This document shows positions 16,645 to 48,795 of a stretch of DNA of 64,000 nucleotides, piece by piece. The position numbers were made by a program, and so were the translations under genes. Positions within the stretch are counted from its first letter, which is position 1. The number at the start of each line of letters is the position of its first letter. The notes below the pieces were generated by a model that saw only the letters and a program-made list of their open reading frames with translations, had not been told where the DNA came from and made no database searches. This DNA is from an uncultured Verrucomicrobiae bacterium (lineage in GTDB: Bacteria > Verrucomicrobiota > Verrucomicrobiia > Limisphaerales > Palsa-1400): positions 1,088,001 through 1,152,000 of the forward strand of contig CAVXRD010000002.1 of assembly GCA_963764165.1 (NCBI GenBank), in the 5' to 3' direction.

Positions 16645-18678
<2,034 letters not shown>

Positions 18679-18764
18679 TCCGAAACGCTAATGTAGCGCA
18701 TGGCCTTCGTCAAGCAACCCGAATTGCCGAGAATATCATCGATCGAAAGAGAGAGTGCGACAGC

Positions 18765-32980: not shown

Positions 32981-33066
32981 TGGTGGTAGGTGATGGATTC
33001 GAACCATCGAAGGCGTAAGCCAGCAGATTTACAGTCTGCCCCCGTTGGCCACTTGGGTAACCTACC
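32981..33066 (-). tRNA. tRNA-Tyr (GTA)
   Basis: GGTAGGTTACCCAAGTGGCCAACGGGGGCAGACTGTAAATCTGC...GGTTCGAATCCATCACCTACCACCA with a long variable arm and encoded CCA. Confidence 0.97.
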
Positions 33067-38228: not shown

Positions 38229-38708
38229 TTACTTCAACTTCGCCAGCGCGGCTTGGATGGCGCTGAAATTTGGCAACTCCTTCGGAGACGGCGTTTGCTC
38301 GGCGTATTGAACGACGCCTTCCTTGTCGATCACAAACGCGGCGCGGGCGGAAAAATCGCCAATGCCGAGGAAATTAGGAATCAAAACGTCATAGGCGGTG
38401 GTGACGGTTTTGTTCAAATCGCTGGCCAGCGGAATCGTGATGTTTTCCTTCTTGGCCCACGCTTCCTGCGCGAAGGGCGAATCGACGCTCACTCCAATGA
38501 CAGCGGCGTTCAGGTTGGAATACTGCGAGATGCCGCCGGAAATATCGCACATTTCCTTCGTGCAAACGCCCGTGAAGGCGGCGGGGAAAAACAGCAGCAC
38601 CGTATTTTTCTGGCCGAGATTTGCGCTGAGCTTGATGTCCACCAAGCCGCTTTCAGTCTTCGATTTGAGAGAGAAGTCCGGTGCTTTCGATCCAACTTTA
38701 ATAGCCAT
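38229..38708 (-). CDS. Peroxiredoxin (AhpC/TSA, AhpE-like)
   Basis: FFPAAFTGVCTKEMC, GVSVDSPF, RAAFVID. Confidence 0.92.
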   Translation of the reverse strand: MAIKVGSKAPDFSLKSKTESGLVDIKLSANLGQKNTVLLFFPAAFTGVCTKEMCDISGGISQYSNLNAAVIGVSVDSPFAQEAWAKKENITIPLASDLNKTVTTAYDVLIPNFLGIGDFSARAAFVIDKEGVVQYAEQTPSPKELPNFSAIQAALAKLK

Positions 38709-38860: not shown

Positions 38861-38972
38861 GTTTTATGCATATAATCTCCGAAAAGCGGCAACATCCGTT
38901 ACATTGTTGATTGCCAGGCATTTAAGTGGCAACAAAAATGGCAACACAGTGGCAACAACCAGCAACATTTTC
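38861..38972 (+). repeat. Element A copy 1: phased GCAACA repeats
   Basis: GCAACA at 38889, 38929, 38941, 38952 and 38962; homologous to 40141..40193 and 46817..46920. Confidence 0.8.
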
Positions 38973-39007
38973 GGAATGGAAGAGCCCAATACGTCGCGAA
39001 AAACCAA

Positions 39008-39333
39008 GGGTGCAATAGGGTGCAATAGCGTGCAACGCCCCAATCACGATTTCTGATCCTCTGCGCACTCATCTTCTCTGCGCGAGAGTTTTTTCCCTTT
39101 GTGGATTCATCAGGTCATGAAACGCAGTCGCGCGCAGAGGCGCTGAGAACGCAGAGGTTCCTCGCGGCCTGAAATGAACGCAAGTGTTTATCAAAGAACA
39201 CGCCCTGATGGCAACAGGGAGAAAAATAAGCCCGAAAATCCCTCGTGTCAATTAAGGCTGCAATTGCACGATTCAGTGGTATTATGCCGATATGACAAAC
39301 GAAACATCGATTGTCCGAGCGGGAACGGAGGCG
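39008..39333 (+). repeat. Element B copy 1: ~330-bp non-coding repeat with divergent promoters and a boxA-like motif
   Basis: Colinear with 40431..40755 (gggtgcaatagcgtgcaacgccc...cctctgcgcactcatcttctctgcgcgaga...gcagaggttcctcgcggcctgaaatgaacgcaa...atgacaaacga). Confidence 0.88.
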
Positions 39334-39370
39334 GAAATGGTGTTTTGTTCCAGATCGCCAAGTCCGGTAA

Positions 39371-39613
39371 TTATTTTCCGGTTCCTTCTTTGGCGGCGGA
39401 AATGCGCTGGCGGATTTCCGCCAAAAGCTGGCGGCCCCGCGCGGGATTTCCACGCTGCTGCCGCAGCAGAAATCGCGCCTCGGCCTGACGCTCGGCAATG
39501 ACATGAGTCACAAAGTTGTCAAAAAGACGCTGCACGCTGGTTCCGCAGGAATGGGCCACGCCCATCAGCGCCTTGTGCTTGGCATCATCACAGCGATAAG
39601 GAATAGTTTTCAT
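39371..39613 (-). CDS. Antitoxin (RHH/HicB-like) of a PIN-family TA pair
   Basis: 80 aa; R.DD.KH..L...A...G.SV..L and AEARF..R..RG.PARG..LL; 4-nt overlap with the toxin. Confidence 0.78.
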   Translation of the reverse strand: MKTIPYRCDDAKHKALMGVAHSCGTSVQRLFDNFVTHVIAERQAEARFLLRQQRGNPARGRQLLAEIRQRISAAKEGTGK

Positions 39614-40032
39614 CGAACAATCTTCAAATGTTGTGCCGGGGTCACAAAGCGTGGCCAGCTAAAAGTGAGATCACCACGCTGGAAATCCCGGATATTATGA
39701 GTGACGAGGTGCTCCGCTCCGCAAGCAATGGCCAGCTCCAGGACATGGTCATCGCCAGGGTCGGGCAAATTCGGCCTCCATCTGAAATAAATCGGCTGCC
39801 AGAGAGCTGCCGCGCAAAAATCATCCAACAAAGTTTCGCGCTCTGCCAAAGACACGGGAACGTCCACCCATAAGGAACCCCGTTGGATAATTTCCTCGTA
39901 TTCCGCCAAAAGCGCTGCCCCCAGATAGGCCTGATCCAGAAGCGCCAAAGCGCGATCCAGCACCTCGGCGCTGGCTCCCTCCGAGCTCCGCAAGGCAGCG
40001 ATGAATACATTGGTATCTTGCACGATATCCAA
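39610..40032 (-). CDS. PIN-domain toxin (PIN_3-like)
   Basis: DTNVF, LLAEYEE, WRPNLPDPGDDHVLELA, VTHNIRDF. Confidence 0.9.
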   Translation of the reverse strand: MDIVQDTNVFIAALRSSEGASAEVLDRALALLDQAYLGAALLAEYEEIIQRGSLWVDVPVSLAERETLLDDFCAAALWQPIYFRWRPNLPDPGDDHVLELAIACGAEHLVTHNIRDFQRGDLTFSWPRFVTPAQHLKIVR

Positions 40033-40140
40033 GCCGAAAATATGGCATCACCCGTGATGCCAGTCAAGGTGGTTCGGCCACAACCAAGCCAATTGGTGTG
40101 ATTGGAGGCGCGCGAGCGCTGAGATGAAGTGGGGGATATT

Positions 40141-40193
40141 GTTTTATGCATATAATCTCCCAAAAAGTGGCAACAAAAAGGGCAACATTTTCG
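40141..40193 (+). repeat. Element A copy 2 (collapsed)
   Basis: gttttatgcatataatctcc identical to copy 1, then only two GCAACA repeats (40170, 40182) and cattttcg. Confidence 0.75.
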
Positions 40194-40430
40194 AAACGCA
40201 GGAGATCTCAACATCAAGGAAACAAAGGGGAATGCCGCCGGCCAAGTAGGCCGGGTGCCCCACCCGGCAGGGAATTGGTAAAACCGATAAACGCCAAATC
40301 GGACGGCGACGTTAGCAGTCCACGTGCAACTACAAAGGTTTATTGGCGGGTCTCACCAATTCTTTGGTGGGGACTCCTTTAAAGATCCGCACTAGCCAGA
40401 GGGATCACAAAGGCAGATATGCGCAACCAC

Positions 40431-40755
40431 GGGTGCAATAGCGTGCAACGCCCCGCTGACGATTTCTGTCCCTCTGCGCACTCATCTTCTCTGCGCGAGA
40501 GTTCTTTTCCCCTGTGGACGCGGTTTGGTTTCATTGTGGCATGAAACCCAATCGCGCGCTGAGGCACGGAGAGCGCAGAGGTTCCTCGCGGCCTGAAATG
40601 AACGCAAAATGTCAAAGAACACGCCCTGACGGCGACGGGGAGAAAAATAATGCCAAAAACCGCCTTTGTCAATTAAGCTTGCAATACCACGTTTATTTGG
40701 TATAATGCGAAGCATGACAAACGAGGCATCGATTGTCCAGGCGGGAACAGAGGCA
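40431..40755 (+). repeat. Element B copy 2
   Basis: Direct repeat of 39008..39333. Confidence 0.88.
40610..40714. promoter_or_regulatory. Back-to-back sigma70 promoters with a boxA-like motif (also at 39189..39292)
   Basis: Minus strand TTGACA(40672)-17 bp-TATTTT then GTTCTTTGACA; plus strand TTGCAA-16 bp-TATAAT(40701) with a TG extension, 7 nt before ATG 40714. Confidence 0.65.
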
Positions 40756-40908
40756 AAAACATTGGCGGCAGACCGTCATCCCGGAAGGGATTGCCAGAGT
40801 GCAGCCGGCGGTTAAGCGCAGCGACACCACTGGATGCAACGCCAAAAAATCCCAGGACCCCGGAGGAGGCGCCACCTTTGCCTTCCAAATTTACCACTAC
40901 GGTCTGGT

Positions 40909-41325
40909 TTATCTCGCCGTGGTGGTTGGCGACATCGAAAGACCCAGGCGTTGGAAATCCCCGGACAACTTGGCAAGGGATTCCTTGAGCGGAATCACGT
41001 CCTTGGCCGCCTTGGCGGCGCTGTCTTTGATCGCGGCCAGACCACCGGCGGTCAGGTCGGTCGAAAGAAACTTCTGCACGTCGCGCAGGTCAGACAGAAA
41101 TGGCTGAAAGGCGATTTCGGTTTCGTTGTATTGCTGGCTGATGCGGTTGAAGCGCCCCGTGACTTCGCTCCGGCGGGTTTCGCTGCCGCTGCGGATGTCC
41201 TCGTTCTGGATCTGGCCTGATTCTCTGTCCTAATTCGCAAAGTAATCCGCGCCTTGAGATTTCATTTGGCCGTCTTTGCTGGTGATATCCTTGGACGATA
41301 CTCCGAGTTCGTCCACGGCAATAAT
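40909..41325 (-). pseudogene. 5'-truncated DUF2959-like gene with an in-frame stop
   Basis: ...MKSQGADYFAN*DRESGQIQNEDIRSGSETRRSEV...FQPFLSDLRDVQKFLSTDLT; TAG at 41230..41232 where the family has Trp. Confidence 0.65.
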
Positions 41326-41612
41326 GCTGGTCCATTGACAGATCGCGTCATAATTACCGTGATGCGCAGGAGGCTAACCGGCGAGGCCTGACAGGCGCTA
41401 TACGGCGTTCTACGCAGCTTAAGAGCGTGAAGGTGGGAGTGAAGGGGTCCTATTCCACTGAAGGCATCTGGGAACCACGAATCATTGGGCAGACGCTTGC
41501 GCGTGGGGGCAATGCGGTTTTTAGGGCCCCGGCGCGAGCGGCGGGAATAACAGCGGATGAAAACTGATTCCCATTTCCGAATGCAAAAAGTGTCAAAAGT
41601 GAGGAAGCCGGT

Positions 41613-41671
41613 AACGCCTTTTATCAACAAAAGGGACCAAATGAGAAAGCATACTTTCATTTTTCTAGGAC
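41613..41671 (+). repeat. Left arm of a ~60-bp inverted-repeat pair (partner 43884..43943)
   Basis: AACGCCTTTTATCAACAAAAGGGACCAAATGAGAAAGCATACTTTCATTTTTCTAGGAC. Confidence 0.85.
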
Positions 41672-41823
41672 TGACCTTTTCACTTTCAAGGACCGTTTCA
41701 CTTTCAGGCCCAACCGGCATGAGGACGGGCGGTAGGGCGCAGTGGACCACAGATCATTTCGCCGGGGGGTTACTCCGCCAATACAAACTCACCTCGCAAT
41801 CCTACTAGCAAGGGATAATTACC

Positions 41824-43431
41824 CTAATTTGACAGTCGGTAAAACTGCTCCGTGCCGAAGATGGCATTCGTCACGGTGTTATTTGTGTTGACGACGACCG
41901 GCGCTGGGGAGACGGCTGTCCAGACCGCTGATGAGCCAAGGTTGGTGGCGGATTGCAAAGTGAAGCCGATCGCATTCGTAGGCCACGTCAAAAGGACATT
42001 TAGCCCAGAAAGAATAATTGTCAGTTGCGGCGGTGGTATCTGTGCAAAATTTGCCACCAGATTGCGGTCGCCGCTCAGCGTAAAATTGTAGCTGGCGGAG
42101 GCACTAACCACGCTTCCGTTCTCCGTCCAGTTGGTGAATTCATAACCGCTGTTTGCCGTGGCGGTCACCGTCTGTGAAGTGCCTGAAGCGAATGTGCCAC
42201 CGCCGCCAACCGTGCCGCCAATACTGGGCGAGGCGCTGACAGCGATGGCATACATAATCTGATTGAAATTCGCCACCAGATTGCGATTGCCATTGAGTGT
42301 GAAATTGTAGCTCTCAGAGGAACTAACCACGCTTCCATTTTCCGTCCAGTTAATGAATACATAACCGCTGTTTGCCGTGGCGGTCACCGTCTGTGAAGTG
42401 CCTGAAGCGAATGTGCCACCGCCGCCAACCGTGCCGCCAATGCTGGGCGAGGCGCTGACGGCAATGATATAGGTAATCTGTGTGAAGTTAGCAACCAATG
42501 CGGTATCCGCACTAACTGTGAATGGATAACTTGCCGAAGTGCTGACGACGCTTCCGCCAACAGTCCAATTAGCAAATGTGTAACCGGAGTTTGGGGTTGC
42601 TGTGACTGTAGCCGTCGTCCAATCATCGTATGTGCCCCCACCGCCGGTGTTCCCACCGTTACTCGGTGATGAGCTTGTTGTCATAGCCCACTGTTGCTCG
42701 AACGTAAGGCTTTCGGGATACCACGGGTTTACGGGAGAATTAGGTATTGTCTGCACAATCGCCCCAGAGCTAGGATTGATCTTCTCGATGCTCCCCCCGT
42801 TGTTTTCGACGAGCCAAAGATAGCCTCCTCCGTAGGTGAGACTATTGGGATACCACGGGTTTACGGGAGAATTAGGTATTGTCTGCACGATCGCCCCAGA
42901 GCTAGGATTGATCTTCTCGATGCTCACACCGTTGTTCTCGACGAGCCAAAGATAGCCTCCTCCGTAGGTGAGACTATTGGGATACCACGTGTTTACGGGA
43001 GAATTAGGTATTGTCTGCACGATCGCCCCAGAGCTAGGATTGATCTTCTCGATGCTCACCCCGTTGTTCTCGACGAGCCAAAGATAGCCTCCTCCGTAGG
43101 TGAGACTATTGGGATACCACGTGTTTACGGGAGAATTAGGTATTGTCTGCACAATCGCCCCAGAGCTAGGATTGATCTTCTCGATGCTCACCCCGTTGTT
43201 CTCGACGAGCCAAAGATAGCCTCCTCCGTAGGTGAGACTATTGGGATACCACGTGTTTACGGGAGAATTAGGTATTGTCTGCACGATCGCCCCAGAGCTA
43301 GGATTGATCTTCTCGATGCTCACCCCGTTGTTCTCGACGAGCCAAAGATAGCCACTATTGGACAATGCTGTTAACGGAGTCGCGACGAGGATAACTAAAA
43401 CACCCAAAATGATTTTCTGTACGATTCGCAT
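41824..43431 (-). CDS. Secreted protein: five near-identical 44-aa beta-propeller-blade repeats, three InlB-B-like repeats and shared C-terminal domain
   Basis: Signal peptide; (GYLWLVENNGVSIEKINPSSGAIVQTIPNSPVNTWYPNSLTYGG)x5; TVTAT.NSGY.F.NWT repeats; ...EQFYRLSN. Confidence 0.85.
   Translation of the reverse strand: MRIVQKIILGVLVILVATPLTALSNSGYLWLVENNGVSIEKINPSSGAIVQTIPNSPVNTWYPNSLTYGGGYLWLVENNGVSIEKINPSSGAIVQTIPNSPVNTWYPNSLTYGGGYLWLVENNGVSIEKINPSSGAIVQTIPNSPVNTWYPNSLTYGGGYLWLVENNGVSIEKINPSSGAIVQTIPNSPVNPWYPNSLTYGGGYLWLVENNGGSIEKINPSSGAIVQTIPNSPVNPWYPESLTFEQQWAMTTSSSPSNGGNTGGGGTYDDWTTATVTATPNSGYTFANWTVGGSVVSTSASYPFTVSADTALVANFTQITYIIAVSASPSIGGTVGGGGTFASGTSQTVTATANSGYVFINWTENGSVVSSSESYNFTLNGNRNLVANFNQIMYAIAVSASPSIGGTVGGGGTFASGTSQTVTATANSGYEFTNWTENGSVVSASASYNFTLSGDRNLVANFAQIPPPQLTIILSGLNVLLTWPTNAIGFTLQSATNLGSSAVWTAVSPAPVVVNTNNTVTNAIFGTEQFYRLSN
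42694..43353 (-). repeat. Intragenic tandem repeat, 5 x 132 bp
   Basis: Units differ at only a few bases; the last unit diverges at its 3' end. Confidence 0.95.
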
Positions 43432-43883
43432 TATTCAAATCTTTGGCGAATTTACATTTATTTCACCAGTGTCCCAGGCGTCGGCGTCGACGTTGCGGGC
43501 GGGACGTGATGATCCGGCGGGAAGATGCCCAGTTTGAGTTCGGCGCGGGACGGGGTTGGCCGGGTCAATCGCCGGAAATTCCAGGTCGGCGGCGTATTGG
43601 ATAGTCAAATCGGGATTTCCCATTTGGTTTCTTGCCCACTACCAGCGTGAGCCTTTTTCGTGATTTTCCTCTTGCTCCAAAGATTTGCAAGTCCTTTTCC
43701 AGTCTGCCTTTGGGGTTTCTCTGGCACAGGGGGTAACGCGGCCAAGGCAAGATGGACGAAAATCAAGGCGGCGAAGAAATGGACCTTTTGGCGTTTTCTG
43801 AAAGGCTGGAGTTTTAGCCGACTCCAAGCCTTTCAATTTGAGGCCGCAAACCGAACTGATGAACAATTGAGAGCTGTGAAAGG

Positions 43884-43943
43884 GTCCTAGAAAAATGACA
43901 GTTTTGCTTTCTCATCTGGTCCGTTCTGTTGATAAAAGGCGTT
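43884..43943 (-). repeat. Right arm of the ~60-bp inverted-repeat pair
   Basis: Reverse complement AACGCCTTTTATCAACAGAACGGACCAGATGAGAAAGCAAAACTGTCATTTTTCTAGGAC; 5 mismatches and 1 gap versus the left arm. Confidence 0.85.
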
Positions 43944-44221
43944 GTTTCATTTTTTCCAGCTTTCTGCTCGTCTTCCGTCTTCGCCGAGGCTGCCCCCTTC
44001 GCTGCAGCTTCCTCCTTCGCTAAAGCTTCGGAGGACGAGACGGCGGATAGGAGGCTTCGCGCTGGTCGCGCGTTGGCGAGACCCGTCTTCGCAAACATTT
44101 CGGAGGGCTGGCCACTTTTCCTGATTCAGGTTGGATGGCAGGCTGATCCGCTGTCATCAGCAAACTTGATTTTTTAACGATTCCCCGCTCCGGGTGTGAT
44201 TGAAAGCGGGTGCGAATATTT

Positions 44222-44343
44222 GGGCGGACACGCAGGTCCGCCCTACCAAAATTGGGGCAGGGCGAGACTCTGTCGAGCCCATTATGGATTTTTCGACTTT
44301 GGCGGAAAGACTTAATCAGGGCTCGACAGAGTCTCGCCCTACC
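44222..44343. repeat. GTAG-type REP cluster/doublet
   Basis: gggcggac..gtccgccctacc, then ggcagggcgagactctgtcgagccc ... gggctcgacagagtctcgccctacc; degenerate relative at ~20350..20449. Confidence 0.75.
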
Positions 44344-44397
44344 GAACGTGTTTTTACAGCTTGTTTCGGCGGCGGTCTCTCGCACACTGAGCGCTTC

Positions 44398-45363
44398 GTG
44401 AGCGAAAAATCACATGTCGTCGTAACCGGTGGGGCGGGGTTCATTGGCTCGCACCTTGTCGAAAGGCTGCTGGCGGAGGACCACGCCGTGACCGTCATTG
44501 ACGATCTTTCCACCGGCCGGTTGGAAAATCTGGATTCCGTGAAGTCCCACAAAGATTTAAGGATCGTGGTTTCCAAGGTTTCCGCGCTGGCCGATTTGCA
44601 AACGATCGTGGCCAGGTCACAGTTCATTTATCATCTTGCGGCGGCGGTGGGTGTCGAACTGGTGATGGCTTCCAGCCTGCGCACAATCCAAACCAATCTG
44701 CACGAGACGGAATTCATCATGGACGCGGCGACGGCAGCCAAAGTCCCCGTGCTGCTGGCCTCGACTTCCGAGGTTTACGGCAAGAGCCAGCGCGACGCGT
44801 TTTCCGAAGAGGACGATTTGCTGATTGGGCCGCCGCATTTGAGCCGGTGGAGCTACGCCTGCTCGAAGTTGATGGATGAATTCCTCGCGCTCGGGCATTT
44901 TCGCGAATACCAGACGCCCGTCATCATCACCCGGCTGTTCAACACCGTCGGCCCGCGCCAGACGGGGCAATATGGGATGGTGCTGCCGCGTTTCATCGAA
45001 GCCGCCAAAGCCGGGAAGCCCCTTCGGGTTTTTGGCGATGGAAAACAAACGCGCTGTTTTTGTTCCGTGAATGATACGGTGAAAGCGTTGTTGCTGCTGA
45101 AGGATTGCCCTAAAGCGCGCGGCGAAATTTTCAATATCGGATCCACCGAGGAAGTGAGCATTGTTCGATTGGCCGAGACGGTCATTGAAATTCTTCAGTC
45201 CTCGTCAACCATCGAATACATTCCTTACGACAAAGCGTGCGCGCCGGGCTTTCAGGACATGCTGCGGCGGAAACCGGTGGTTGCAAAACTTGGGCGGTAT
45301 GTCGGCTTTCGGCCAGGCACGACCCTTCGCGAAATCATTCGCCAAACGGCGCTGGGCGGTTAG
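44398..45363 (+). CDS. NAD-dependent nucleotide-sugar epimerase/dehydratase
   Basis: VTGGAGFIGSHL, HLAAAVGV, STSEVYGK, YACSK, RLFNTVGPRQ; GTG start at 44398. Confidence 0.92.
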   Translation: MSEKSHVVVTGGAGFIGSHLVERLLAEDHAVTVIDDLSTGRLENLDSVKSHKDLRIVVSKVSALADLQTIVARSQFIYHLAAAVGVELVMASSLRTIQTNLHETEFIMDAATAAKVPVLLASTSEVYGKSQRDAFSEEDDLLIGPPHLSRWSYACSKLMDEFLALGHFREYQTPVIITRLFNTVGPRQTGQYGMVLPRFIEAAKAGKPLRVFGDGKQTRCFCSVNDTVKALLLLKDCPKARGEIFNIGSTEEVSIVRLAETVIEILQSSSTIEYIPYDKACAPGFQDMLRRKPVVAKLGRYVGFRPGTTLREIIRQTALGG

Positions 45364-45373
45364 CTGTCCGAAA

Positions 45374-45751
45374 TTACTGCTTTGGGCAACGCCGTTTGAT
45401 GGTTGCCCAATAGACCAGCGCGATCAATAGCGGCTGGAAGGGAAGCCTTGCCCACAAGATCCAGCGCGCGATGTTCACACCTTTCCATCCGTGCAGGGCC
45501 ACTTGCAAGTTTGCCGGAAAAACTGCGACCAGAAGCGCGATCAAACCCCAGCCAGCCCACACTCGCGTCTGCGGAATAAGAACGCCAATGCCGCCCGCTA
45601 TCTCCGCCCCGCCGCTGATGATATTGAGCGCCTCGGGCTTTGGCAGATACGGCGGAATCATCGAGAGATACGGCGCCGGATTGAGAAAGTGATTTGCACC
45701 GGCTCCCACGAAAAACAAACCGAGCAGCCATACGACGACATTGCGAGTCAT
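45374..45751 (-). CDS. DoxX-like membrane protein
   Basis: AGANHF.NP..Y..MIPPYLP, SG.AEI, VFPAN, RLPFQ. Confidence 0.8.
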   Translation of the reverse strand: MTRNVVVWLLGLFFVGAGANHFLNPAPYLSMIPPYLPKPEALNIISGGAEIAGGIGVLIPQTRVWAGWGLIALLVAVFPANLQVALHGWKGVNIARWILWARLPFQPLLIALVYWATIKRRCPKQ

Positions 45752-45838
45752 GCTGGCGCACAGCCTAGCTTGCTTGCGCAGAATGCCAATCCCCTAACGC
45801 AATCGTCGCAGTGACAAAAAGAATTGCCCGAAGGAAAT

Positions 45839-45927
45839 TAACAGAAGGCAACGAAGTGAACGAAGAGGGACAAGTCGTCCGGTCTGTGCTCTGGTCCTTC
45901 TTCGTGTGCTTCGTTGCCTTCTGTTGA
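45839..45927. repeat. Intergenic inverted repeat (ACAGAAGGCAACGAAG family)
   Basis: aacagaaggcaacgaag ... cttcgttgccttctgtt. Confidence 0.7.
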
Positions 45928-45976
45928 TTCTGGTCCGGGTGACGGATAAACGAGGCACACCCCTTTCCAAATCGCG

Positions 45977-46159
45977 TTACGAAACGACAAATTTGTGCGC
46001 GCCGCGGAATTCGACGAGGTTCATCTTCAGCGCGAGTTGAATAATTCCCGCCGCTTTTTGCTGTCCCCACGTTTTGTAGACGCCGTTTACAAAATCGCCG
46101 AACGTCAACGGCCTCTTGCTCGATTGGGGTTTCATTCTCGGATTCTGCTTCAATTTCAT
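45977..46159 (-). CDS. Small hypothetical protein
   Basis: LTFGDFVNGVYKTWGQQKAAGIIQLALKMNLVEF; co-oriented with neighbours. Confidence 0.55.
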   Translation of the reverse strand: MKLKQNPRMKPQSSKRPLTFGDFVNGVYKTWGQQKAAGIIQLALKMNLVEFRGAHKFVVS

Positions 46160-46197
46160 ACGAGAGATAACCCCGCATCGGTTGGATTTGTTTCGGA

Positions 46198-46599
46198 TCA
46201 ATTTTCGTGATCTTCGTCCGGCGTTGAATCGCCGGAGTCTTGCGCGGCGAGCAATGCGTTTATCTCAGGATCGATGGCGAGCCGCAGCAGGCGCTGCAAT
46301 TCCGGGTCCATGTATTGCAGGGTTTCTGGAATGTCCAACACCTCAATCGGCGGCAGCCTCGAATCGCGAAATCGTTCTTGTATCCGCGCCTTGTGACCGC
46401 GCTCCATGACAAAGATGACATCGGCCCAATTTACGTCGGCTTCGCTGATGAGATGTTTTGCGCTGGAGCTCACGCCCGCCGATTTCACCGCCAGGCGCGG
46501 ATCGGATCGGTAAAGCATCTCCGCAGTGGGGCTGCGCCATCGGTTCAGGCTGCAGACGAAAAGAATGCGCAGGCGGTTGGTCATCGTTTCTTCGTTCAT
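46198..46599 (-). CDS. Low-molecular-weight protein tyrosine phosphatase-like protein
   Basis: ILFVCSLNRWRSPTAE, SAG, WADVIFVME, LDIP. Confidence 0.85.
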   Translation of the reverse strand: MNEETMTNRLRILFVCSLNRWRSPTAEMLYRSDPRLAVKSAGVSSSAKHLISEADVNWADVIFVMERGHKARIQERFRDSRLPPIEVLDIPETLQYMDPELQRLLRLAIDPEINALLAAQDSGDSTPDEDHEN

Positions 46600-46816
46600 T
46601 GGGCAGGATAAGGCTACGAGGCGCGGCAGTCCGGTGGAAGCATCAAATGGCTTTGGCGCGATCGATGCAGTTGGATTTGGGAGCGCCAGCCGTCATGACC
46701 GCACAGCGACATGCACGAGGCCTGCACGCGGGGAGCCAATGGCTGCATGATCAAGCCCGGCAAAGAACCCATTTGGAATCCAGGCTTGGCACTGGCTTGG
46801 CCAAAGCTCGGTATAG

Positions 46817-46920
46817 TGTATGATCTCGAAAAAGGGGCAACACCCGCTACACGGTTGACCATCAACGAGATAAGGGGCAACAAAAATGGCAACAAACCCG
46901 CAACAGACCCGCAACATTTC
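46817..46920 (+). repeat. Element A copy 3
   Basis: GCAACA at 46837, 46877, 46889, 46900 and 46911; same 40/12/11 spacing as copy 1. Confidence 0.78.
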
Positions 46921-47197
46921 TTCCCGCGCTGTCGGGTTGCATGAAACGCGGCGTCTTTCCGCCGTTCCCTGAAATTTTCATCAAGATGCCTGCACCATCA
47001 TTGTTCCATTGAAAACAGCGAGGAACCCTCCATTGGCCGCTACAACCCGCTACATTCCCTCCGAGGGTATCCAATCCAATGAAACAATACGTTTTCCATG
47101 GCATCCTGCAGCCTTCAGTTATCGCCGGCCATTTTCCGTTTTCTGGGCCTCTCGCAAGAGGCCGGAAGGCCGGCGCTCACCAAAGGACGGAGAAACT

Positions 47198-47349: not shown

Positions 47350-48795
47350 ATGGAAGCCACCACAGATCCAATTGAGAGTTTTGTTAAATCCGAATACAAA
47401 TACGGGTTTACCAGTGAAATCGAGACCGAGGCCTTTCCGCCTGGGTTGAGCGAGGACGTTGTGCGCCGGATTTCCCAAGTCAAGGGCGAGCCGGAATTCA
47501 TGCTCGATTGGCGCATCAAGGCCTTCCGCCGCTGGCAAACGATGACGGAGCCGCATTGGCCCAACGTTCAATACCCGCCCATCAATTATCAGGATTACAT
47601 CTATTACGCTGTGCCAAAAGCGAAGAAGAAGCTCAACAGCCTGGATGAAGTGGATCCCAAGACGCGCGAGTTGTTCGACAAGCTCGGCATTTCCCTCACC
47701 GAACAAAAGCGCCTTTCCAACGTGGCCGTCGACGCCGTGTTGGACAGCGCTTCAGTTGCGACGACTTTCCGCGAAGAGCTGGCCAAAGTTGGCGTTATAT
47801 TCTGCTCGTTTTCCGAGGCGGTGAAGAACCATCCCGATCTGGTCAAAAAATATCTTGGCACCGTCGTGCCGCCGGGAGACAACTTTTTCTCGGCCCTGAA
47901 TTCGGCCGTGTTCAGCGACGGCTCGTTCTGCTACATCCCGAAGGGCGTCCGCTGCCCGATGGAACTTTCGACCTATTTCCGCATGAACACCGCCAACGCG
48001 GGGCAATTCGAGCGGACTTTGATCATCGCAGACGAAGGCAGTTACGTCAGTTACCTTGAAGGCTGCACCGCCCCGATGCGCGATGAAAACCAGCTCCACG
48101 CCGCTGTGGTGGAATTGATCGCGATGGAAAACGCCGAGATCAAATATTCCACCGTGCAGAACTGGTACCCCGGCGATGCCGAAGGCAAAGGGGGCATCTA
48201 TAATTTCGTGACCAAGCGCGGCAAGTGCGCCGGCCGCAATTCCAAAATTTCATGGACGCAAGTCGAAACCGGCTCCTCCATCACCTGGAAATATCCGAGC
48301 GTGCTCCTGCTTGGCGAAAATTCCGTGGGCGAATTTTATTCGGTCGCGCTGACGAACCATCGCCAGCAGGCCGATACCGGCACAAAGATGATCCACGTCG
48401 GGCGCAACACCAGCAGCACGATTGTGTCAAAAGGAATTTCCGCCGGGCGCGGCCAGAACAGCTATCGCGGCCTGGTGCAGATTCGCCCGAGCGCGGCCAA
48501 CGCGCGCAATTATTCGCAGTGCGATTCCCTGCTCCTGGGCGACCGCTGCGGCGCGCACACATTCCCGTATCTCGAAGTCGGCAACAGCACAGCCACCGTC
48601 GAGCACGAGGCATCCACCTCGAAGATCGGCGAAGACCAGATTTTTTATTGCAACCAACGCGGCATCTCCACGCAGGACGCTGTCAATATGATTGTCAACG
48701 GATACTGCAAGGAAGTGTTCAGCCATCTGCCCATGGAATTCGCGGTTGAAGCCCAGGCGCTCCTGGGTGTCAGCCTCGAAGGCAGCGTCGGTTGA
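47350..48795 (+). CDS. sufB: Fe-S cluster assembly protein SufB
   Basis: [41 protein letters not shown]. Confidence 0.98.

Follow-up and report, generated by a model that had tools for sequence, protein, structure and literature searches.

The 64,000-nt stretch analysed here (the window) comes from contig CAVXRD010000002.1 of an uncultured Verrucomicrobiae bacterium. Between its conserved peroxiredoxin-prmA (prx-prmA) block and its suf block lies a zone (38861..46920) in which accessory genes are interspersed with non-coding repeat modules, labelled A to F, and with hairpins. In our tentative reading, the zone contains a stack of two decayed copies of an element that is one-directional, dispersed and likely spread by the packaging machinery of Mu-like phages; we give this reading slightly less than an even chance. 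The features of the zone and its borders are as follows.

38229..38708, minus strand: peroxiredoxin (gene match), which opens the conserved prx-prmA block on the core side of the boundary
38870..38970, plus strand: A1, a phased hexamer array (spacing 9-12 nt) around a site resembling that of integration host factor (IHF), the outermost 5' module
~38996-39335, plus strand: B1, made up of C1, H1 and D1
38996..39043, plus strand: C1, a triple 10-bp repeat
39056..39164, no strand assigned: palindromic hairpin repeat H1, nested in B1 (112 matches genome-wide)
39189..39335, plus strand: D1, a leftward sigma70-type promoter and the start (39292) of a decayed small-terminase-like open reading frame (ORF)
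39371..40032, minus strand: cargo toxin-antitoxin pair, with a PIN_3 toxin (39610-40032) and a small partner gene (39371-39613)
40137..40204, plus strand: A2, a partial A copy with an internal deletion
~40431..40757, plus strand: B2, made up of a partial C2 (40431-40455), hairpin H1 (40468-40588) and D2 (40609-40757, ORF start 40714)
40909..41335, minus strand: cargo DUF2959 pseudogene
41509..41605, plus strand: module E (13 matches genome-wide)
41613..41681, plus strand: module F, left inverted-repeat arm (7 matches genome-wide)
41824..43431, minus strand: cargo repeat protein gene ('propeller' gene; repeats and domain matches), with five 132-nt repeats of 44 aa each, DUF6923 and InlB-B-type domains
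43880..43943, minus strand: module F, right inverted-repeat arm
44200..46599, both strands: epimerase (plus); DoxX-like, 74-aa and LMWPc-like genes (minus)
44197-44344: hairpins H3/H4, within the epimerase/DoxX stretch
45838-45927: hairpin H5, within the same stretch
46766..47027, plus strand: ISL3-type miniature inverted-repeat transposable element (MITE) carrying A3 (46817-46920), then the 3' half of a resident A
47350..48795, plus strand: sufB, which opens the conserved suf block

The original prediction had placed A1, A2, A3, B1 and B2 correctly, all on the plus strand, together with both inverted-repeat arms, and gene and protein matches bear out its toxin-antitoxin pair, epimerase, DoxX-like gene and DUF2959 pseudogene. 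It was also right that the zone holds no recombinase or transposase gene. Its three repeat families are present, although module E and five hairpin families besides H1 had been overlooked (hairpin labels H1-H6 are our own). The B copies are real but composite: in each, a palindromic hairpin stands between module C, which is the triple decamer, and module D. A3, counted as a third delimiter, is a genuine copy but travels inside an ISL3-type MITE, which is truncated at its 5' end and extends to 47027. The DUF2959 pseudogene has lost its 5' part and its frame is broken; the remnant is 74.6% identical to residues 80-209 of a relative's intact protein. The cargo genes of the zone use both strands.

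Profiles made from the window copies were searched against the 7.0-Mb genome and yielded 122 matches for A, 83 for C, 50 for D, 13 for E and 7 for F. The A, C and D matches merge into 128 loci, mostly with a single module set; 48 of them hold A alone. The element has a fixed order on one strand, A>C>D>(gene)>E>F. A copy of C lies upstream of D on the same strand within 1 kb in 49 of 50 cases (chance 2.3%), A lies upstream of D in 29 of 50, and each of the 13 E copies is preceded by a D on its own strand, at a distance of no more than 3.5 kb. An IHF-like site with phased hexamers is found in 46 of the 63 full A copies (6.6 expected from shuffles), D-linked C copies begin mostly with TG, and every one of the 50 D copies carries a leftward TTGACA-N16-18-TAnnnT promoter (1.8 expected). 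The fold of E is weak and without double changes. Other explanations of the modules were discarded: local GC skew gave no replication-strand bias; the 5' gene that the promoter of D might drive points away in 29 of 50 cases, at a background of ~60%; and a structured RNA is not indicated, with no Rfam match in the zone and neither consensus fold nor double changes in A, D or E.

This distribution bears directly on the earlier proposal of a local array of integron or pdif type. In the window, same-strand repeats do alternate with small accessory genes, and E-cargo-E and F-gene-F layouts recur at a few other loci. However, a local cassette array served by a site-specific recombinase has to be set against 128 dispersed loci with mostly single module sets, cargo facing both ways, flanks that are not syntenic and no adjacent integrase, and we consider it highly improbable. 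A search for recombinase genes beside repeat copies found 22 tyrosine-recombinase (PF00589) matches, none within 3 kb of A, C or D, and five serine-recombinase matches, one ~2.6 kb from a C-D locus and the other four not near. The delimiters do not appear to be of attC or dif type, as had been noted from the start. In a fold test, run without an attC model, neither A nor D gave a consensus fold or folded palindrome, and A, C, D and E measure 50-150 nt and never form opposite-strand pairs genome-wide, a comparison that did not extend to dif similarity itself. At one locus (L247:7460-8440), a D copy passes into F across a short core common to both; another F, in direct orientation, comes one gene later.

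A one-off local tandem duplication producing A1-B1 and A2-B2 would fit the 1.4-kb distance between the two copies and their shared orientation. Yet B1 and B2 are 80% identical to each other and each is 83-85% identical to copies elsewhere in the genome, which refutes a recent event, and an old one would leave the family unexplained. We regard this alternative as barely credible.

Module D is the promoter and 5' end of a gene, whose start codon opens a 369-aa ORF. This ORF is intact at three D-linked loci and broken or partial at five more, and both D copies of the window retain only its first codons. The 369-aa protein matches PHROG 426, a terminase small subunit (TerS), with an E-value of 1.3e-7, and its AlphaFold model is all-helical with a predicted local distance difference test score (pLDDT) of 88. 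Over the core domain (residues 31-220), the ratio of non-synonymous to synonymous changes (pN/pS) among the three intact copies is 0.13-0.19, a pattern indicative of a gene under purifying selection. Judged from these comparisons, the sole gene of the element is related to a phage protein for DNA packaging and stands alone, and we refer to it as orphan terS.

The element usually marks the transition from core to foreign-looking genes. The gene with the lower GC content at third codon positions (GC3) lay on the 3' side at 96 of 128 loci (p = 7e-11), significantly so in three of four orientation classes. At A-C-D loci, with 81 multicopy genes dropped, the first 3' gene has a median GC3 of 0.613 versus 0.701 on the 5' side (38 of 50, p = 1e-6); a difference persists at the second gene and is gone at the third. 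The same polarity holds for lone A copies (38/52) and for C without D (26/33). It was not seen at 87 control hairpins, nor at MITEs without D (n=9). In distance, A lies closer to its 5' gene, at a median of 217 versus 525 nt.

Comparison with related genomes gave the same picture. For the metagenome of a sister species, sequence in common with the present genome was on the 5' side of A in 20 of 25 cases and on its 3' side in 8 of 20 (p = 0.012). The sister-species assembly carries A/C/D at 35 loci, mostly at sites other than here, and whole spacers differ between the two species. Among three same-genus genomes, for which 12 loci were fetched, 7 compared and 40 candidates scored per genome, the nearest gene on the 3' side was unmatched at 6 of 7 loci, and the nearest on the 5' side was matched at 5 of 7, one of them partially. 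At two loci, the flanks are adjacent in a relative and separated here by 10.4 and 5.4 kb. The genome-wide scatter of the repeats is half of what the original prediction itself named as its refutation. The other half is not borne out, as variable cargo does go with the repeats, though on a single side. The part of that prediction in which the repeats are serviced in trans therefore holds up, now for an element that is dispersed and one-ended and no longer for a local array of cassettes.

Homology between loci has the same direction, with 25 pairs (15 loci) sharing 3' DNA and no pair sharing 5' DNA. Units present in duplicate have a sharp start, which falls on A or C or immediately ahead of it, and their ends differ, many of them coinciding with a hairpin. 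Target duplications were not seen at the element copies, which are old enough to have lost them, and among the matches listed in 17 upstream-anchored and 5 downstream-anchored sister-species comparisons there was neither a clean empty site nor a target duplication. Taken together, this is a polar, multicopy, modular element that is co-duplicated with its 3' DNA and carries an orphan terS-like gene under selection.

A search of 20 related genomes gave no match to A, C or D, only to hairpin H1. The orphan gene matched in 11 of 20 relatives, with up to 12 matches per genome. The wider family comprises 4,188 representatives at an E-value of <=0.001, phage members included. Among the best 80 of 139 orphan loci in other genomes, none has terL, the large terminase gene, within 3 kb, versus 70 of 71 viral loci; no A-like arrays or A/C/D matches were found near these 80. 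A triple decamer stands near the stop codon of 54 of 74 evaluable orphans, versus 0 of 71 phage terS genes and 3 of 669 other ORF ends. Orphans and phage terS fall on opposite sides of one branch with a support of 0.92 (147 rows). In a thinned tree of 62 rows (28 versus 34), made from every third orphan and every second phage row, the support is 100/99. The orphans were gathered with an orphan-derived query, and the tree is unrooted, so the direction from phage to orphan is only inferred.

Small ORFs sit directly upstream of several orphan terS genes (L045, L049 and L055); from their look, they may encode a KTSC domain. Orphan terS genes also occur in tandem (L032/L048 and L033), in L032/L048 with the triple decamer between the copies. 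DUF3631 genes abut or lie near four A copies of the present genome and were not seen at terS loci.

If the decamer marks the outer end of the element, then those other genomes in which it lies 3' of the gene are predicted to have a mirrored polarity, a prediction open to failure. It came out as predicted. Measured as coverage by proteins conserved in the present genome, conservation at the 3'-decamer loci is higher on the 3' side in 22 and on the 5' side in 4 of 37 evaluable loci (p = 2e-4), and for all 50 evaluable orphan loci the numbers are 30 versus 5. Counted by genome (by hand, 25 genomes), the 3'-decamer loci gave 14 versus 3, with 8 ties. The decamer thus faces conserved DNA in both layouts.

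The triple decamer also resembles repeats at the termini of some Mu-like prophages. Behind terS-terL-portal, many viral records have, over the next few hundred bases, short repeats, a triple decamer and then unrelated DNA, and at the other end of these records the same short repeats appear inverted. In Mu itself, the pac site lies near one end. At a relaxed threshold, the decamer was found in 10 of 20 'end-type' loci and 4 of 31 others among the 51 phage loci with post-portal sequence, and all nine distinct phage decamer units fit the orphan profile better forward than reversed. A MuA-like gene was detected with our own profile in 31 phage loci, and a tyrosine integrase above cut-off in 3 of 25 viral records. 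In nine prophage records (L064, L068, L075, L079, L086, L098, L102, L111 and L117), terS-terL-portal stands at one extreme end, with capsid and tail genes transcribed in the opposite direction in the left half, where that part was fetched; terL and portal of L064 were confirmed. By eye, the end of L098 adjoins a tRNA-like sequence.

The present genome harbours a candidate helper phage. On contig C4 at ~316.5-352 kb lies a ~35-kb prophage with matches to transposase, MuB-like, Gam, terL, portal, protease and capsid genes, apparently complete, Mu-like and with inverted end repeats. Its Mu-type transposase is indicated by a PHROG 310 match (E 2.4e-6) beside one to PHROG 296 (E 3.4e-29); our own MuA profile, made from other phages, did not match it, whereas the PHROGs did. 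An A copy and a DUF3631 gene sit ~250 nt outside its left end. The last gene of a stranded late-gene fragment at L330:10450-14280 (contig C2, ~560-564 kb) codes for a large terminase, and a toxin-antitoxin-like pair comes after it.

In the main alternative, A and C would be arrays bound by a transposase or recombinase that acts in trans, and E/F would form the opposite end, as in mini-Mu or arm-type att sites. The element would then transpose together with its 3' cargo, and the role of the terminase-like gene would be that of a passenger or a regulator. The phased hexamers around the IHF-like site of A, the sharp 5' edge of A in duplicated pairs and the TG with which D-linked C copies mostly begin are what such ends might look like. 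A Mu-type transposase is at hand, and the right-end motif of the C4 prophage recurs nearly exactly just before one C. However, that is the only one of four non-prophage matches to the end motif near a C, and no second end was found. Right ends are variable and often at hairpins, the sister-species comparisons listed above contain neither target duplication nor clean empty site, no tyrosine recombinase is adjacent, and the A pattern is absent from viral contigs (0 matches). We consider transposition by trans-acting ends possible but doubtful.

Some A copies are carried by MITEs. The MITE that carries A3 is 318 nt long in full; the window copy lacks the first 55 nt and keeps the last 263 nt at 98.5% identity to the full copy. 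Its terminal inverted repeats match those of the single ISL3 transposase element of the genome. An 8-bp target duplication is a trait of the ISL3 family, and exact 8-bp duplications flank 5 of 14 paired MITE copies as well as the transposase element; the left end of the window copy is lost and its duplication cannot be scored. The A3-bearing element resembles ISL3-family MITEs in these ends and duplications and differs in carrying a copy of the repeat into which it inserts: 13 of 17 MITE copies adjoin part of a resident A. A second MITE family of 280 nt has the same ISL3-type ends and no A passenger (C2:754675, C2:1262429, C3:205878 and C3:544326).

With 17 of 122 A copies riding in ISL3 MITEs and several D-less C copies following an ISL3-like end, the modules could be altogether passive, spread by these MITEs, by transposases associated with repetitive extragenic palindromic (REP) sequences and by repeat recombination into existing hot spots, the polarity being a landing preference beside core genes. 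The closeness of A to its 5' gene, the different cargo of the rpsO spacer in relatives (see below) and the wholesale difference of spacers between sister species would all fit. Passive spread does not explain the purifying selection on the orphan gene, its phylum-wide pairing with the triple decamer or the flip of polarity with the side of the decamer, and neither hairpins nor D-less MITEs have polarity. We therefore judge it unlikely.

Returning to phage packaging, the reading we favour, we propose the following route. The triple decamer would serve the orphan protein as a pac-like binding site. Cutting would take place just beyond the decamer, by the large terminase of a helper, which would then package inward, so that particles would carry the element plus whatever lies 3' of it. 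In the recipient, the sharp end would join illegitimately and the far end by homology, often at a palindromic repeat. Such a process should leave a 5' edge that is fixed and 3' ends that vary, with a one-sided gain of genes and without target duplication. Afterwards, most copies would lose the gene, while MITEs, insertion sequences and hairpins would accumulate. For the one-sided gathering of accessory genes there is a precedent in phages and Staphylococcus aureus pathogenicity islands (SaPIs), where accessory and defence genes are enriched downstream of pac sites, according to one report (PMC12829572).

Several observations weigh against this proposal. The GC3 polarity, which derives from our own gene calls, fades by the third gene, a distance far shorter than a headful, and the polarity of lone A copies is not explained by a decamer-based model. 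One 'empty' site, the rpsO spacer, holds other small genes in relatives, and because of this the spacers appear to be hot spots even without A/C/D. In the mirror-polarity test, loci are not independent, and promoter DNA forms part of the upstream flank, a bias for the GC measure and, to a lesser degree, for coverage. C fits the phage and orphan decamer profiles better in reverse, with p = 0.10 and 0.39, and the link from C to the decamer is therefore only suggestive; C1 likewise resembles the prophage-terminal decamer solely as its reverse complement, below significance. The 369-aa protein scores 24.5 bits against Pfam Mu gp27 (PF11985), under the 28-bit cut-off, and its AlphaFold model found no match at an E-value of <=0.001 in a fold search of the PDB. 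The gene upstream of terL in the C4 prophage does not match the orphan family. Binding, packaging and transfer are putative steps.

Among known systems, the closest parallel is with phage-inducible chromosomal islands (PICIs) and SaPIs. Shared traits are an element-encoded small terminase without its own large terminase, a dependence on helper phages, which is here a proposed one, and accessory genes that lie to one side of the site where packaging is presumed to start (PMC12829572). The element differs in lacking an integrase, a fixed att site and a replication module at terS loci, and in consisting of one gene with dozens of decayed copies per genome. Mu-like prophages and mini-Mu are comparable in that the orphan gene probably belongs to the Mu gp27-like terS family, that a Mu-like prophage is present in the genome and that some verrucomicrobial Mu-like prophages have a similar triple decamer close to their terminus. 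In contrast to them (PMC8705779), the element has no paired ends, target duplication or transposase gene, and the orphans form a separate, diverged clade.

Integron and pdif arrays share with the zone small accessory genes punctuated by non-coding repeats, whereas the element is dispersed, with non-palindromic modules, no adjacent integrase and one-sided cargo. With REP/REPIN sequences and their associated transposases (RAYT), the genome has in common abundant intergenic hairpins and 10 Y1-transposase matches; these hairpins are nested in and around the element, have no polarity and are not the element. If the packaging steps hold, the element would work as a stripped-down PICI; it lies outside what defines PICIs, integrons and pdif modules and is unproven as mini-Mu. 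A literature search whose coverage excluded most subscription journals and supplements found no report of an orphan terS element, a DUF3486-terminase link or a transposable-phage pac end.

A further step, which we put forward as a more daring and less probable idea, would see in the element a one-gene packaging parasite: an orphan terS with its own recognition repeat at the terminus and without integrase, replicase or transposase, multiplying at dozens of chromosomal sites across Verrucomicrobiota, each site a one-way entry for phage-carried genes. Were packaging to prove true, this would be a phage parasite smaller than a PICI and a route of gene gain without integrase, a dispersed, self-propagating lateral-transduction system that builds accessory islets. 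Were it wrong, the modules would still predict entry points of accessory genes in these genomes. In either case, the local cassette idea gives way to a testable genome-wide rule, that of oriented non-coding modules at the core/foreign boundary of ~130 sites. In other Verrucomicrobiota, a large clade of orphan small terminases follows this rule in mirror image.

The flanks of the zone are conserved, as first proposed, but each block separately, and their adjacency was not seen in relatives. None of eight prx-side and seven suf-side regions from relatives contained the other block or any gene of the zone. In two same-genus genomes, a thiG-panB-moaC-like block (names by reading of the sequences) precedes sufB; in this genome, that block lies 2 Mb away from sufB, indicating that the zone is also a rearrangement junction.

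On the minus strand at 39189-39235, downstream of the leftward promoter of D, lie a short hairpin and a boxA-like stretch, presumably akin to antitermination leaders. An att site in a tRNA gene was considered and rejected, as the sole tRNA of the window, tRNA-Tyr at 32981-33066 (minus strand), is ~5.8 kb off. A thiamine pyrophosphate (TPP) riboswitch is located at 18561-18684, also on the minus strand.

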